Under the pieces are notes generated by a model, which saw nothing but the letters and a program-made list of their open reading frames with translations, made no database searches and was not told the origin of the DNA. Below, piece after piece: positions 1,056-6,891 of a stretch of DNA of 7,280 bases (position 1 is the first letter of the stretch; every line of letters begins with the position of its first letter). The stretch is from IMG/VR virus record IMGVR_UViG_2700989509_000014. One strand, written 5' to 3'. The stretch is from a virus (Duplodnaviria > Heunggongvirae > Uroviricota > Caudoviricetes). The position numbers were made by a program, and so were the translations under genes.

Positions 1056-1162
1056 TGAAGGTGATGGGGCAGGGATCAGAATTGCGTGGTGTAGCAAGTT
1101 GTATCTATCAATTTTCAATAAATACAATTGGTTATGTGTTTTTAGGTGGAGCGATCGTGAGG

Positions 1163-1189
1163 CAAAGAAAACCCGGCGCGGTGGCCGGG
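1163..1189 (-). terminator. Rho-independent terminator closing the minus-strand two-gene cassette
   Basis: On the minus strand: CCCGGC-caccgc-GCCGGG (6-bp GC stem, plus coordinates 1172-1189) followed directly by TTTTCTTT (plus 1164-1171). It starts about 15 nt after the stop codon of the 1205-2134 gene. There is no T-tract on the plus-strand side, so it is unidirectional. Confidence 0.65.
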
Positions 1190-1204
1190 CTGAAGGGGCT
1201 CATT

Positions 1205-2134
1205 CTAATCGATTGATTTAATATCCCATTGAGGTCGAGAAACCAGAGTGTATCTGGGCTTGCCCTTACCAACAGTTTTTTTCAGGAACGTGGCTGTTGC
1301 AACGCTTCCTAAGTGCTTGTTTATAATATCTGGGTCATCTACAGCTTTGTCAATGCTAGCGGTTCTGATATCAGTGTTACCTAAAACTATAAATTCACAT
1401 TGGCGCTTGTTAGGAAGAGTTCCCAAAAATATAACGTTCTCAATAATTTTTTCCTGCTGAATGTTATCATTGCTGAGATGTTGATATACAGCTTCAAGCT
1501 GTTTTGGCTCTCTAAAAACGATGCTAAAACCTTGGCTTTTAAGTGTAAAAACTGTTTTATTTTCATGCAGATAATGAATGAATGCTCTGATTTTATCTAA
1601 GGCCCGAGAGTCTAAGTTTTCTATAGCATCAGACAATTCTTCATCATCATTATCCAAGCTTGCCTGAAATATTTTTCTGGCCTTATTAATAGCTTTTGCT
1701 ACTGGGGTTTCTTCATCGAATTCAAGAGGAGCATCAGGTCTAAACTCTTCAAGTACGAATCCGAAAGAACCACGGGCTGACGCGGTAATCATGAGATGAT
1801 TATTTTCTATGTTTGGTATCTTGCCTGATGCAGGAAGTGGGCCATTGAAAGAGGTTGCCAAGTAAGCTATTGCATCATTAAAACAAGATATAGCTTTTGT
1901 TCCAAATACTGCTGAAATGCCATGCGTGCCAACTACTGTTGGGCCTCTAAAAGTTAACACAGCATGCGTAGGTTCATGTTCTCGAACGTCAGCTTGTGAA
2001 ATTAATCGCTCAACTTTCTCCAGACGGTCTTCTAAGCTTTTTCGGCTAATAGAATGACTTGTTGGCATATTTTTTAATAGATTACTTATTTGCTCGCGCT
2101 CACTGAGAGCGAAAACATAATCATTACGATTCAT
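1205..2134 (-). CDS. Hypothetical protein, 309 aa; distal gene of a two-gene cassette downstream of cI; candidate defence/exclusion component, function unknown
   Basis: Long ORF with ATG at 2134 preceded by GAGGGGG 7 nt upstream on the minus strand. Its start overlaps the stop of the upstream gene by 4 bp (ATGA). AT-rich (about 33% GC in a sampled 60-mer). Ends just before an intrinsic terminator. No Walker motif, no obvious transmembrane segment, no family I can name. A weak R-x6-H string (RAFIHYLH) is noted but not relied on. Confidence 0.75.
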   Translation of the reverse strand: MNRNDYVFALSEREQISNLLKNMPTSHSISRKSLEDRLEKVERLISQADVREHEPTHAVLTFRGPTVVGTHGISAVFGTKAISCFNDAIAYLATSFNGPLPASGKIPNIENNHLMITASARGSFGFVLEEFRPDAPLEFDEETPVAKAINKARKIFQASLDNDDEELSDAIENLDSRALDKIRAFIHYLHENKTVFTLKSQGFSIVFREPKQLEAVYQHLSNDNIQQEKIIENVIFLGTLPNKRQCEFIVLGNTDIRTASIDKAVDDPDIINKHLGSVATATFLKKTVGKGKPRYTLVSRPQWDIKSID

Positions 2135-2709
2135 TGTTTGACCCCCTCAGTAGTAGCCGAATTAAGTATAGTCATTGCCACAACATCAAGTTGTGGGTTT
2201 AACGGGATTTGGATAAATCCCTTCCACGACAGATCGCGTCTATGTGCCCACATACTGTACCAGTATACAGTCATTTCAACAAGCTCATGACTTGGTAGAT
2301 TAAGTTCTTGGAAGTAGGAATCTACGAAAAACTCCTTCTTAACAAAATCATGATCAAATAGCTCTGGCTTTCTACCGATTACGATTGCATCATTATCGCC
2401 ATTACTGAATTGAAAAAAGGTCACAACATCGACATCATTCGGTGGCCTTTTTTCAATAAGTTCAATATGTTCTGTGAAGCTTCCATCTACCCACTGAAAA
2501 CCTTCAACTAGCCCTGCTTGAGTGAGTGAAACACGAAAGTTAAGAAAACCCTTAAGGATTTTAATCCTTGCAGGGCTAAGCGAAAAAGTACTAACAAAGC
2601 GTACTATATCCATTTTGTATGGGGAACGAGTATGGCTTGTAGGATCAGCCTCGTCTATTGGGGGGATTAACCCCATCTCATTCCATAGAGAGACAGTTGG
2701 TATACTCAA
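2131..2709 (-). CDS. Hypothetical protein, ~192 aa (TTG start at 2709; alternative ATG at 2676 gives 181 aa); proximal gene of the cassette; possible nucleotidyltransferase-like fold, tentative
   Basis: ORF with TTG start preceded by AAGGT 5 nt upstream on the minus strand; the internal in-frame ATG at 2676 has a weaker GGAA signal. Contains W-V-D-G-S-F, then 15 residues, then D-V-D-V-V, which resembles the hG[GS]…DhDh signature of Pol-beta-type (minimal) nucleotidyltransferases; this is pattern resemblance only. AT-rich. Lies 114 bp downstream of the cI stop on the same strand. Confidence 0.7.
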   Translation of the reverse strand: MSIPTVSLWNEMGLIPPIDEADPTSHTRSPYKMDIVRFVSTFSLSPARIKILKGFLNFRVSLTQAGLVEGFQWVDGSFTEHIELIEKRPPNDVDVVTFFQFSNGDNDAIVIGRKPELFDHDFVKKEFFVDSYFQELNLPSHELVEMTVYWYSMWAHRRDLSWKGFIQIPLNPQLDVVAMTILNSATTEGVKQ

Positions 2710-2823: not shown

Positions 2824-3531
2824 TTACCAGCTATGTGATGACCAGAATACTCTGCCAATAATCCTTACTGTTTCATGAAACTCATCTCTATCCATTACTT
2901 CATCAGGGTACTCTTCGCGATTTATTGATCTGATTATCACGGATGTAGGTGTGGCTATTAATGTCTTTACTCTTAGTAAATCAGATTGACAAATAGCGTA
3001 GGTTTTACCATCTCTGATGGTGGTGTCTTGCGTGTTGACTCCAACAACATCACCATCGTGAAGGGTTGGCTCCATGCTTTGGCCTATCACCCTAACCAGC
3101 TTGGCAGAGCTTTCAGATACCCCCATCTTTTTCAGATAGTACTTTCTGAAAACCAAAGAGAACTCAGATGATTCCTCTAACTCACAGCTACCACTCCCGG
3201 CGGAAAGAGAAACATTAAGAAGAGGCAATGCGACAAACTCGTCATCGTTTCTTTTTATGTCCTCCCATACCACCGCTTTTAAAGATGACTCACGCACATT
3301 CGATGGCTCTTCATGTGCACCATCCCTCATTTCACCAATACCTGAGCTAAGCCATTCAGGGCGTACTTTTAAAGCATTGGCTAACTCAACCATCTTTCGA
3401 GATCCGTTTGTTTTACCGGATGACATCTTCTGTATGGCTGGCTGAGATATTCCAACCATGTCAGCAAGCTGTGATTGTGACACCCCTGCTGAGCTCATGG
3501 CTGCATTTAGTCTTTCTGCGAATGTTTTCAT
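2824..3531 (-). CDS. cI: Phage CI-like repressor (N-terminal HTH, C-terminal S24/LexA-type autopeptidase), 235 aa from ATG 3531
   Basis: HTH segment SQSQLADMVGISQPAIQKM. Ala-Gly candidate autocleavage site (LSAGSG). Ser nucleophile in GQSMEP and a downstream Lys (LLRVKTL), as in LexA/CI S24 peptidases. Divergent from a cro-like gene across an operator region. The ORF track starts at a TTG (3561), but that extension would overlap operator site 1; the ATG at 3529-3531 (MKTFAERLN…) is the more likely start. Confidence 0.85.
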   Translation of the reverse strand: MKTFAERLNAAMSSAGVSQSQLADMVGISQPAIQKMSSGKTNGSRKMVELANALKVRPEWLSSGIGEMRDGAHEEPSNVRESSLKAVVWEDIKRNDDEFVALPLLNVSLSAGSGSCELEESSEFSLVFRKYYLKKMGVSESSAKLVRVIGQSMEPTLHDGDVVGVNTQDTTIRDGKTYAICQSDLLRVKTLIATPTSVIIRSINREEYPDEVMDRDEFHETVRIIGRVFWSSHSW

Positions 3532-3543
3532 ACCCACAAATCT

Positions 3544-3606
3544 ATAACTACGGTTATCCAAAGTAAAATAACAAAGGTTATTGCTATTTTTTATAACTTG
3601 AGTTAT
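3544..3606. promoter_or_regulatory. Tripartite operator (OR-like): three perfect ATAAC-N4-GTTAT palindromes between the divergent cI and cro genes; overlapping pRM/pR-type promoters inferred
   Basis: Exact sites ATAACtacgGTTAT (3544-3557), ATAACaaagGTTAT (3568-3581) and ATAACttgaGTTAT (3593-3606), spaced 24 and 25 bp start to start, like lambda OR3-OR2-OR1. Candidate rightward promoter TTGCTA (3581-3586), 17-bp spacer, TATCTT (3604-3609), or alternatively a -10 TATAAG at 3614-3619. Candidate leftward -10 is TATAGA on the minus strand (plus 3541-3546). Promoter hexamers are guesses; the palindromes are exact. Confidence 0.65.
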
Positions 3607-3642
3607 CTTTGGTTATAAGTAATGTCCACAAGAGGTATGCTC

Positions 3643-3867
3643 ATGAATTTAGTAATTCAACGAGCCTTGAAAATTGTCGGTAGCCAAAAGCGCCTTGCCG
3701 ACAAGTGTGGTGTAACGCAGCCAGCAGTACATAAATGGCTGAAAGGCGGGTTGGTCTCTCCAGAGAAAGTTACCGCCATCGTTAACGCCACAGGAGGGCA
3801 GATCAAGGCTTACGAAATCCGCCCAGATTTGCCACACCTGTTTCCAAAACCGAATCAGGCAGCATAA
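3643..3867 (+). CDS. cro: Cro-like small HTH regulator (YdaS/Cro family), 74 aa from ATG 3643
   Basis: First rightward gene opposite the repressor. HTH-like segment QKRLADKCGVTQPAVHKWLKG followed by AIVNATGG, which resembles YdaS/Cro-type proteins. AGAGG at 3631-3635 sits 7 nt before ATG 3643; the upstream in-frame ATGs at 3622 and 3637 lack a properly spaced RBS. Stop TAA at 3865-3867. Confidence 0.65.
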   Translation: MNLVIQRALKIVGSQKRLADKCGVTQPAVHKWLKGGLVSPEKVTAIVNATGGQIKAYEIRPDLPHLFPKPNQAA

Positions 3868-3874
3868 GTAACAC

Positions 3875-3909
3875 CGCTCTTTATCAATCTGCACCGCCGA
3901 CAACGCGGT
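3875..3909 (+). promoter_or_regulatory. nutR-like antitermination site: boxA-like CGCTCTTTATCAA followed by a boxB-like hairpin
   Basis: CGCTCTTTA (3875-3883) matches the boxA core (GCTCTTTA / CGCTCTTA). Ten nt downstream is the hairpin ACCGC-cgacaac-GCGGT (3893-3909), a 5-bp stem whose loop contains GACAA, which I recall as the P22-type boxB loop. It lies immediately 3' of cro and 5' of cII, where nutR sits in lambda and P22. Confidence 0.5.
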
Positions 3910-3973
3910 AACTAATTAAGCGCTCATCGAAAGATGGGTATTAGTGATTATTTACCTATGGAAATAGTAAGAA

Positions 3974-4273
3974 ATGGAACAAACAAGTTACAGCAAACTA
4001 TCACAGCGCGACGTTGATCGCGCAGAAACAGATTTACTCATCAACCTGTCAACGCTTACACAGCGCGGTCTGGCAAAGATGATTGGCTGTCATGAATCGA
4101 AGATAAGCAGAACGGACTGGAGATTTATTGCTTCGGTCTTGTGTGCTTTCGGAATGGCATCAGACATCAGTCCGATTAGCAGGGCTTTTAAGTATGCGCT
4201 TGATGGACTCACCAATAAAAAACGCCCGGTGTGCAAGACCGAGCGTTCTGATCAAATACAAATGGAATTTTAA
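3974..4273 (+). CDS. cII: CII-like transcriptional activator (lambda CII homolog), 99 aa
   Basis: C-terminus LTNKKRPVCKTERSDQIQMEF closely matches the lambda CII C-terminus (…ILTNKKRPAATERSEQIQMEF); a central HTH-like segment is present; position after cro/nutR is canonical. Stop TAA at 4271-4273. Confidence 0.8.
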   Translation: MEQTSYSKLSQRDVDRAETDLLINLSTLTQRGLAKMIGCHESKISRTDWRFIASVLCAFGMASDISPISRAFKYALDGLTNKKRPVCKTERSDQIQMEF

Positions 4274-4570: not shown

Positions 4571-5518
4571 ATGAGCAATACAGCAAAAATCTACGATTTC
4601 AGCGCCGCACACGAGCGCAGGAGCAACAGGATGGAGAACCAGAAAACTGGTTACATTCCGTTGTACCGGAGCATTCTGAAACAGTCATGGGCGAAAGATG
4701 TTTATCTTCGCACCCTGTGGGAAAACCTTCTCCTGAATGCCGCCAGAAAGCCATACAAAGCGAATTTCAAAGGTCATGAATGGCATCTGCAACCCGGTCA
4801 ACTGGTTGTGACAGCAGCTGATTTAGGTCTTCAGTTATGCGACAGGCATGGCAAGCCAGCAAGCCGCGATCAGGTTGAGCGGATGCTTCAGGTTTTTGTG
4901 AAAGAGGGGGTGATCACCATTGATGGAGAGAAGCAAAAAGGTCGTGTGATTACCATCACAAATTACCATGAATATGCTCAAAAAATGGACGATTCACCCG
5001 CACATGAAGCCGCACAAACAACCGCACATGATGCCGCACATGACGAAGCCAGCAATGGCGCGGCTTTCAGAGTACATGCCGCACATGAAAGCGCACATGA
5101 AGCCGCACAAACAACCGCACATCATGAACAAGAAGGTATTAACAAGAATATAAATAATACCCCCCTACCCCCCAATGGGGGAGGCGATGGGCAGGTTAAA
5201 CCTGAACGTCGCAAGGCAGAACGAATCGACTACGAATCCTTCCTGAACGCCTACAACACCGAAGTCGGTGGCAGACTTCCACACGCTGTTGCGGTCAACG
5301 AGAAACGCAAACGCCGCCTGAAGAAAATCATCCCGCAACTGAAAACGCCAAACGTGGACGGTTTCAGAGCGTATGTCAGGGCGTTTGTACATCAGGCCAA
5401 GCCGTTTTACTTCGGAGACAACGACACGGGCTGGACGGCTGATTTTGATTACCTGCTGAGGGAAGACTCGTTAACGGGAGTTCGGGAAGGGAAGTTTGCA
5501 GACAGGGGGATTGCATGA
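4571..5518 (+). CDS. Replication initiation protein, lambda O-like N-terminus with a conserved phage replication-protein C-terminal region, 315 aa; carries the origin iterons internally
   Basis: N-terminus [11 protein letters not shown]… parallels lambda O (MTNTAKILNFG…). A His/Ala-rich linker is encoded by the iteron repeats. Directly followed by, and overlapping by 4 bp with, a DnaB-family helicase gene (P22 gene 18 / gene 12-type arrangement). Confidence 0.75.
4998..5181. repeat. Putative phage origin of replication: iteron array, AT-rich tract and C/G palindrome inside the O-like gene
   Basis: A 31-bp perfect direct repeat cgcacatgaagccgcacaaacaaccgcacat at 4999-5029 and 5092-5122. At least eight copies of the 10-mer (c/g)cgcacat(g/c)a between 4998 and 5123. 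Then an AT-rich stretch (5125-5159, …aacaagaatataaataata…), then C6-TA-C6-AAT-G5 (5160-5181). The organisation mirrors ori-lambda, which also lies inside O. Confidence 0.6.
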
Positions 5519-6891
5519 AACAGGATATCGAAGCGAGCGTTATCGGTGGCCTGCTGATTGGTGGATTAACACCAACTGCCAGTGACGTTCTGGCAACGCT
5601 GGAGCCGGAAGCGTTTTCAATTCCGCTCTACCGGAAAGCCTTCGAGGTTATCCGCAAGCAGGCGCGAAACAGAAACCTAATCGACGCGCTGATGGTTGCC
5701 GAGGCGTGCGGAGAGGAGCATTTCACGTCAATCCTGATGACCAGTAAGAACTGCCCGAGTGCCGCAAACCTGAAGGGATATGCCGGAATGGTCGCGGATA
5801 ACTATCACCGCCGCCTGGTGCTGGAAATCATGGATGAAATGCGTGAACCAATTCAGAGAGGAACCATCGATACATCGAGTCAGGCGATGGACGAGCTTGT
5901 AAAGCGTCTTTCAGCCATCAGAAAGCCCCGTGACGAGGTTAAACCTGTACGGTTAGGGGAAATCATCACTGACTACACTGACACGCTTGACAGGCGCCTG
6001 AGGAACGGAGAAGAGTCAGATACCCTGAAGACCGGAATCGAAGAACTTGATGTCATCACCGGAGGGATGAACGCGGAAGACCTGGTGATTATCGCCGCTC
6101 GTCCTGGTATGGGGAAAACCGAACTGGCGCTGAAGATTGCCGAAGGTGTGGCAAGCCGCGTTATTCCTGGTTCTGACGTCCGGCGCGGGGTATTGATTTT
6201 CTCAATGGAAATGAGCGCATTGCAGATTGCAGAGCGAAGCATTGCCAACGCCGGGAGGATGTCGGTTAGCGTGCTGCGAAATCCTGCATCGATGGATGAC
6301 GAAGGCTGGGCGCGTGTTGCTAACGGCATGAGTCAGCTTGCAGATTTGGATGTATGGGTAGTCGATGCCTCGCGGTTATCGGTCGAAGAAATACGCTCAA
6401 TCGCAGAACGGCACAAACAGGAAAATCCAAACCTGTCACTCATCATGGCGGATTATCTTGGCCTGATTGAGAAGCCGAAAGCAGACCGCAACGACCTCGC
6501 AATTGCTCACATCTCCGGAAGCCTGAAGGCGATGGCGAAAGACCTGAAAACGCCTGTTATCTCCCTGAGTCAGCTTTCGCGCGATGTTGAGAAGCGACCA
6601 AACAAACGCCCGACAAACGCAGATTTGCGTGATTCAGGAAGCATTGAGCAGGACGCAGACTCAATCATCATGCTCTATCGGGAAGCGGTATATGACGAGA
6701 ACAGTAGCGCCGCACCATTTGCTGAAATCATTGTGACAAAAAACCGTTTTGGCTCGCTTGGTACGGTTTACCAGCGGTTCTGCAACGGACACTTTGTTGC
6801 ATGTGACCAGGATGAAGCCAGAAAGATTTGCACAGCATCAAATGCACCCGCTGCACGTGGCAGACGATATGCACAAGGGGCTGACGTATGA
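5515..6891 (+). CDS. Replicative DNA helicase, DnaB family (phage-encoded), 458 aa
   Basis: Walker A in [11 protein letters not shown], Walker B-like [10 protein letters not shown], and DnaB C-terminal motifs ([40 protein letters not shown]). DnaB-like N-terminal domain (…[11 protein letters not shown]…). ATG 5515 overlaps the O-like stop (ATGA). Confidence 0.9.

Follow-up and report, generated by a model that had tools for sequence, protein, structure and literature searches.

Three perfect ATAAC-N4-GTTAT palindromes between divergent cI and cro genes as the predicted right operator of an E. coli lambdoid immunity group

The window, by which we mean the whole 7280-bp stretch of DNA analysed here, comes from an E. 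coli lambdoid, Stx-phage-type prophage and carries its early control region. The cI and cro genes are divergently transcribed and flank three palindromes, with cII, O and a helicase gene following cro:

2824-3531, minus strand: cI repressor, 235 aa (Pfam Peptidase_S24, 2.7e-17, and HTH_3, 7.8e-7)
3643-3867, plus strand: Cro, 74 aa (Pfam YdaS/P22_Cro/HTH_3), with recognition helix TQPAVHKW
3974-4273, downstream of cro: CII protein (Pfam)
4571-5518, downstream of cII: replication protein O (Pfam)
5515-6891, downstream of O: DnaB-type helicase (Pfam)

The Pfam matches place the helix-turn-helix (HTH) of cI at the N-terminus, where the recognition helix SQPAIQKM spans residues 29-36, and the Peptidase_S24 domain at the C-terminus. 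Direct reading of the translation shows Ala111-Gly112, Ser152 and Lys189 of the S24 domain in place, which we take to be the LexA/lambda-cI self-cleavage site and, for the last two, the catalytic dyad. An NCBI protein found on 195 contigs is exactly this 235-aa cI, beginning at the ATG at 3531. On the other side, an AAGAGG Shine-Dalgarno sequence at 3630-3635 lies 7 nt ahead of the ATG at 3643, most likely the start of cro. The cI-cro-cII segment of the window is 98.7% identical to that of the Stx1 phage SH2026Stx1, and it occurs at a coverage of at least 80% in 72 of 5426 complete E. coli genomes.

The SH2026Stx1 record MG986485 annotates its cI (11838-12407 of locus L001) as a protein of ~189 aa, starting from an internal Met and without an HTH, while the RefSeq version and the window favour the 235-aa form. 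Short annotations of this kind may explain the Stx-phage CI clades reported as "lacking the HTH domain" (PMC8951638).

A motif search of the whole window for ATAACNNNNGTTAT returned three exact matches, all of them between cI and cro. These are listed here with one weaker neighbour; being dyads, the sites have no strand:

3544-3557: OR3, nearest cI, ATAACTACGGTTAT = ATAACtacgGTTAT, centre tacg, exact palindrome
3568-3581: OR2, ATAACAAAGGTTAT = ATAACaaagGTTAT, centre aaag, exact palindrome
3593-3606: OR1, nearest cro, ATAACTTGAGTTAT = ATAACttgaGTTAT, centre ttga, exact palindrome
3603-3616: candidate for a weak fourth site or a lone half-site, TTATCTTTGGTTAT = TTATCtttgGTTAT, 2 mismatches, function uncertain

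All six half-sites of the three palindromes are identical, the start-to-start distances are 24 and 25 bp, or about 2.3 helical turns, and OR3 begins at a distance of 13 bp from the first base of the cI start codon. A sequence-only reading of the same DNA had described three such palindromes with identical half-sites and these centres, spaced 24 and 25 bp apart between cI and cro, the nearest 13 bp from the ATG at 3531; the motif search recovers the same sites, the coordinates and the Pfam-identified genes agree with the spacing and placement, and we measure the same distance to the start codon. When up to 2 mismatches are allowed, the element at 3603-3616 is the sole extra intergenic site, overlapping OR1 by 4 bp. 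In the alignment of OR regions its GGTTAT is kept only in the window type, locus L057 and the PA28 type, and is absent in HK639, the ECO95 type and Kluyvera. The remaining relaxed matches in the window (at 1122, 2993 and 6547) are within chance expectation.

We consider it about 90% probable that the interval 3532-3642 is the right operator of this E. coli lambdoid prophage, its palindromes being predicted from sequence to bind cI dimers and, in lytic growth, Cro. Comparison with relatives, comprising PA28 (representing the O157 Stx1a phages), HK639, a wastewater phage clone, six genomic loci and 80 viral-contig loci, reveals a footprint at the three sites. Every repressor with the SQPAIQKM helix is accompanied by three sites at the same positions, OR2 often being one base off (36 distinct upstream regions). 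An alignment of eight diverged OR regions shows 20/20 half-site columns of OR1 and OR3 to be invariant, together with most of those of OR2; none of the central columns is invariant, the inter-site spacers vary, and the site spacing of ~24-25 bp recurs in all eight relatives. The half-sites are thus kept, with centres and spacers changed, beside the diverged repressors of PA28/O157 Stx1 phages, HK639 and a Kluyvera prophage, the last of which is only 47% identical overall and still has both SQPAIQKM and the three sites. Because OR2 in close relatives is usually one base off, reading ATAATaaagGTTAT, ACAACaattGTTAT or ATAACaatgCTTAT (ATAAT.., ACAAC.., ..CTTAT), the three perfect sites of the window are the clean end of a range.

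The same motif marks a second operator, OL, upstream of N, which we found in the relatives only; the search for further sites that the sequence-only reading had proposed thus succeeds there, and the window itself holds no fourth exact site. In SH2026Stx1 (L001) an exact site at 10183 and a site with one mismatch at 10208 lie 25 bp apart directly upstream of N, and the 25-kb locus contains, besides OR and this pair, three scattered one-mismatch matches, where chance would give 0.73 at one mismatch or fewer. Three OL sites are present in PA28 (L002; 5158, 5178 and 5203) and in HK639 (L003; 6534, 6555 and 6580). A pair consisting of an exact site and ATAAA-N4-GTTAT, 25 bp apart, occurs in nearly all SQPAIQKM loci fetched, 1.2-2.5 kb beyond cI, at a distance set by the cargo genes in between.

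Palindromes as short and AT-rich as these could in principle have arisen by chance or form a repeat without a regulatory role, such as a mobile-element remnant or a recombination site. We regard this as vanishingly improbable and effectively refuted: none of 200 dinucleotide-preserving shuffles of the window yields even one exact site (mean 0.00, maximum 0), the positions of the sites are conserved while their centres vary freely, and the only place outside OR where relatives repeat the motif is OL.

At OL, the third site is degenerate and stands nearer to its neighbour, at 20-21 bp (L001 10229-10265, L002 5140-5171, L003 6520-6547), with 1-2 mismatches in HK639 and PA28 and a half-site only in SH2026Stx1; beyond it follows a conserved GTTAT-N9/10-ATAAC arrangement. 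Two OL sites have been reported for phage 933W (PMC8065619), and the OL of the present group may likewise be effectively two-site. The operators of 933W belong to a different repressor. So do those of BAA2326, the Stx2 phage of O104:H4, which we set aside: they share the words ATAAC and GGTTAT, but their symmetry is weak.

Distant relatives with other half-sites retain the 5-N4-5 architecture and the spacing, and the recognition helices of both regulators change along with the half-site, giving four specificity classes:

ATAAC half-site: cI SQPAIQKM, Cro [ST]QPAVHKW
ACAAC half-site: cI SQAAIQKI, Cro [ST]QQAVYKW
ATCGC half-site: cI AQSS[IV]N[RK]L, Cro AQSTICDW
ATAGC half-site: cI AQPSVWKL, Cro KQPSVWAW

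In all four classes the helix of cI resembles that of Cro (for example, QPA[IV]xK in both, or QPSVW in both), as would be expected if the two proteins read one half-site. This covariation is the strongest computational evidence in favour of the palindromes as the predicted cognate operators. The OR3-OR2-OR1 layout, which the sequence-only reading had called textbook, is accordingly backed by gene context, phylogenetic footprinting, the recurrence of the motif at OL in relatives and the helix covariation.

A different possibility is that the palindromes are bound by one regulator only, such as Cro, or by a further factor from the prophage or the host, and that the repressor reads some other sequence. 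cI and Cro are different folds of HTH protein, so that their shared recognition is something we infer. The half-site changes, however, follow the helices of both cI and Cro through all four classes, the two helices being alike in each, and the 111-bp interval 3532-3642 contains no other repeated dyad; we therefore judge this alternative very unlikely and retain the right operator, recognised by both proteins, as the preferred reading.

The specificity suggested by these comparisons appears to belong to an immunity group, beyond this prophage alone, because repressors that are 47-85% identical overall share SQPAIQKM and the same half-sites. The claim that the palindromes define the immunity specificity of this prophage therefore holds as far as they are its predicted operators, and is too narrow in assigning to one prophage what its group has in common.

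To relate the sites to transcription, we placed promoters by hexamer matches of 8/12 together with conserved position, because a sigma-70 consensus scan of 3400-3750 at a threshold of 9/12 returned no promoter; a terminator consensus scan of the same span returned none at threshold. The proposed elements are as follows:

3562-3567, minus strand: proposed PRM -35, TTTACT, by inspection; AGTAAA conserved in 7 of 8 relatives
3539-3544, minus strand: proposed PRM -10, TAGATT; TAnATT invariant in 8 relatives
3581-3586, plus strand: proposed PR -35, TTGCTA, abutting OR2; TGGACA, TAGACA or TTGCTC in relatives
3604-3609, plus strand: proposed PR -10, TATCTT, overlapping the right half of OR1; TATCTT, TATTTT, TATCCT or TATAAT in relatives

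The two hexamers of each promoter are 17 bp apart and their positions are fixed in relatives. OR3 fills the proposed PRM spacer, OR1 fills the proposed PR spacer and overlaps its -10, and OR2 is flanked by the two -35 hexamers and centred at ~-43.5 from the proposed PRM start. PL follows the same design as the proposed PR in the three relatives with the OL sites given above (L001, L002 and L003), in that TTGACC, TTGCAC or TTGCCA is separated from TATCTT by 17 bp with O1 inside, and in HK639 it coincides with the annotated "putative pL".

The proposed PRM -10 ends 7 nt ahead of the cI ATG in the window and 6 nt ahead in relatives, a geometry from which we predict a leaderless cI mRNA whose first nucleotide is the A of the ATG or one next to it. 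Two other start codons lie in frame upstream of the ATG in the window, a GTG two codons away (3537) and a TTG ten codons away (3561). A stop codon interrupts the frame 4-8 codons ahead of the ATG in six of the eight relatives, which rules out the TTG-extended cI reading frame. The ATG start for which the sequence-only reading had argued is supported by these stops and by the NCBI protein, and its short or leaderless PRM transcript agrees, as a prediction, with the conserved position of the TAnATT -10.

An unlikely alternative, though one we weigh more heavily than recognition by a single regulator, keeps the operators as described and changes the promoter geometry: PR would use TTGAGT (3598-3603) in the OR1 centre as its -35, with a downstream -10 (TATAAG or AGTAAT), or PRM would give a leadered cI mRNA, translated from the TTG (3561) or GTG (3537) codon. 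The HK639 record does place a "putative pR" in this way, with TTGGGT inside OR1, 17 bp and AGTAAT; the window contains both TTGAGT and AGTAAT as well as the two upstream start codons, and the empty 9/12 scan leaves room for another assignment. In the window, however, TTGAGT is just 14 bp from AGTAAT and 10 bp from TATAAG, a geometry that is not conserved, whereas all relatives keep, at OR as well as at OL, a -35 against O2 and a -10 over O1, and the upstream stops exclude a conserved N-terminal extension of cI. We therefore continue with the promoters as listed.

With these promoters, the operator would work as follows. In the lysogen, cI dimers would occupy OR1 and OR2, probably cooperatively; lying over the spacer and -10 of PR and against its -35, they would block cro, cII, O and the helicase gene. 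The dimer at OR2 would at the same time abut the -35 of the divergent PRM at ~-43.5, where lambda cI sits when it activates PRM, and the PRM transcript would begin with the A of the cI ATG or a neighbouring nucleotide. Filling of OR3, within the PRM spacer, by Cro or by abundant repressor would turn off the synthesis of cI. As in phage 434, identical half-sites leave three sources for any order of filling: the flanks, cooperativity and the non-contacted centres, of which that of OR3 contains CG and that of OR2 is A/T-rich. SOS induction would proceed by RecA-stimulated self-cleavage of cI at Ala111-Gly112.

A close parallel is the phage 434 repressor with its operators. Residues 4-67 of cI, its N-terminal 64, align without gaps to the 434 DNA-binding domain, and a phmmer search against the PDB matched the 434 repressor entries 1sq8, 2r63 and 1per (E 7.6e-8 to 2.8e-7), with weaker matches of the N-terminal domain to 434 Cro and P22 c2. 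The likeness extends to a 14-bp operator with invariant outer bases and a variable centre, to positions 1, 3 and 4 of the half-site (A-x-A-A; ATAA here, ACAA in the ACAA-N6-TTGT of 434), to the Gln at the start of the helix (434 Gln28, Gln30 here), and to three sites between divergent cI and cro genes whose products have similar helices. Gln28 of the 434 repressor makes contact with A1, a base that all four specificity classes here keep; the centre of the 434 operator is not contacted but still modulates affinity. Lys or Arg at the 434 Gln33 position accompanies the invariant C5:G5', and it is by analogy with 434 that we infer contact assignments from such pairs.

There are also differences from 434. 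Position 2 is T here and C in 434, position 5 is a fixed C, the helix is SQPAIQKM and not TQQSIEQL, and Cro is of the YdaS/P22-Cro type, unlike 434 Cro. The 24/25-bp spacing between site centres is lambda-like, whereas the sites of the 434 operator stand closer together. The specificity of imm434 (ACAA with TQQSIEQL) is thus absent, and because both helix and half-site differ, the present immunity is not imm434 and the phages should be heteroimmune.

Lambda matches in layout, with three sites ~24 bp apart, OR1 and OR2 over PR (proposed here) and OR3 over PRM (likewise), OR2 centred at about -43 from the predicted PRM start, and a cI mRNA that is predicted to be leaderless here. The lambda PRM -10 is TAGATT, the same hexamer as in the window. 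The Ala111-Gly112 cleavage site, and cII, O and a replicative-helicase function downstream, are further points in common. Unlike lambda, whose operators are 17 bp long, imperfect and non-identical, the window has perfect 14-bp dyads that share one half-site; its cI has a 434/HTH_3-type DNA-binding domain, and OL in relatives consists of two good sites and a degenerate third. The sequence-only reading had found the sites unusually clean, a remark that stands against lambda but fails against 434, where the outer bases are invariant and the centres variable too.

Among the Stx1 phages, the PA28/O157 repressor has the same helix and half-sites as that of the window, even though the two are only ~85% identical overall. 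The early region of H-19B is close to that of O157 Stx1 phages; H-19B probably belongs to the same immunity group as the window, and the motif may therefore already have been footprinted in it. For H-19B, four sites in OR have been reported (review PMC8065619, citing Shi and Friedman 2001, Mol Microbiol 41:585); beside OR1, both the window and PA28 show a partial fourth element, GGTTAT. Phage HK639 (NC_016158) has three exact ATAAC-N4-GTTAT sites at OR, three sites at OL and the same helix. It differs in its antitermination, which is RNA-based (put-like) and does not use N, and its record lacks annotated operators and places pR differently. A search of open-access full text found none of these operator sequences, the single hit being an unrelated S. 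aureus paper; they are absent from the BMC Genomics 2022 paper on CI clades (PMC8951638), and the NAR 2012 paper on H-19B N contains none that is usable.

The operator is of ordinary textbook design, and the understanding of lambdoid regulation is unchanged by these results. Their use lies in having the switch annotated for an immunity group that includes the Stx1-converting phages of E. coli O157:H7 (PA28 type, SH2026Stx1) and HK639, with a motif that predicts mutually excluding prophages and offers defined targets for footprinting and for reporter constructs of Stx-phage induction. The ATAAC/ACAAC/ATCGC/ATAGC series could serve for studying how HTH specificity evolves on a 434-like scaffold.

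A bolder joint reading, which we put forward tentatively and with the odds somewhat against it, combines a natural recognition-code series, a fill order set through centres and cooperativity, and homoimmunity across repressors of 47-85% identity. If it is true, a fixed 434-like scaffold with 5-N4-5 operators would translate small changes in the cI and Cro helices into defined half-site changes, as in the step of cI from SQPAIQKM to SQAAIQKI that accompanies ATAAC to ACAAC; the fill order of OR1, OR2 and OR3 would be coded solely by the non-contacted central 4 bp, through indirect readout, and by cooperativity. The prophage studied here, the PA28-type O157 Stx1 phages, HK639 and the Kluyvera prophage would then be homoimmune, which would bear on which Stx phages superinfect which lysogens.

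Two further elements lie on the cro side. In the gap between cro and cII (3886-3925), inspection by eye reveals a boxA-like CGCTCTTTA at ~3886-3894 followed by short GC-rich inverted repeats, ccgccgacaacgcgg, which are consistent with a candidate nutR site for the N antiterminator. Within the first cII codons, on the cI-sense strand and at the position of lambda PRE, TTGCTGTAACTTGT (3983-3996, minus strand) has one mismatch to the CII box TTGC-N6-TTGC; a search of the window for TTGC-N6-TTGC gave a match count not above chance, and this element is only a candidate.

The far side of cI is occupied by insertion-sequence DNA and by two genes of another kind:

1-877, ORF 15-839 on the plus strand: 3' part of an IS66-family transposase element
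878-1053: terminal ~176 bp of ISEc8, 99-100% identical to ISEc8 of Stx2 phage 1717
1205-2134, minus strand: 309-aa protein, no Pfam match
2131-2709, minus strand: DUF6932 protein, 192 aa, PADLOC candidate defence family PDC-M63A (E 2e-10)

The IS66-family element and the ISEc8 piece are nested, both ends finishing in GTACGCTTAC. Window positions 1056-1190 match L001 10280-10420, the cI-proximal side of OL, so the IS block takes the place of the OL-proximal DNA of relatives, and IS DNA therefore stands between cI and the OL, PL and N of this prophage, which may be rearranged or defective. The prophage's arrangement of IS DNA, DUF6932 cassette and cI was found in no complete E. coli genome or phage record searched.

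The DUF6932 and 309-aa genes overlap and sit downstream of cI, in the position of rexA/rexB. An identical 309-aa protein is widespread, and in 8 of the 8 places listed its gene and a DUF6932 gene lie together downstream of a lambda-type cI of 237 aa, with a Cro of 66 aa. Because the pair accompanies a lambda-type cI and Cro elsewhere, the two genes look like a mobile cassette passing from one immunity type to another, and they are a candidate for a prophage-encoded defence or exclusion module.
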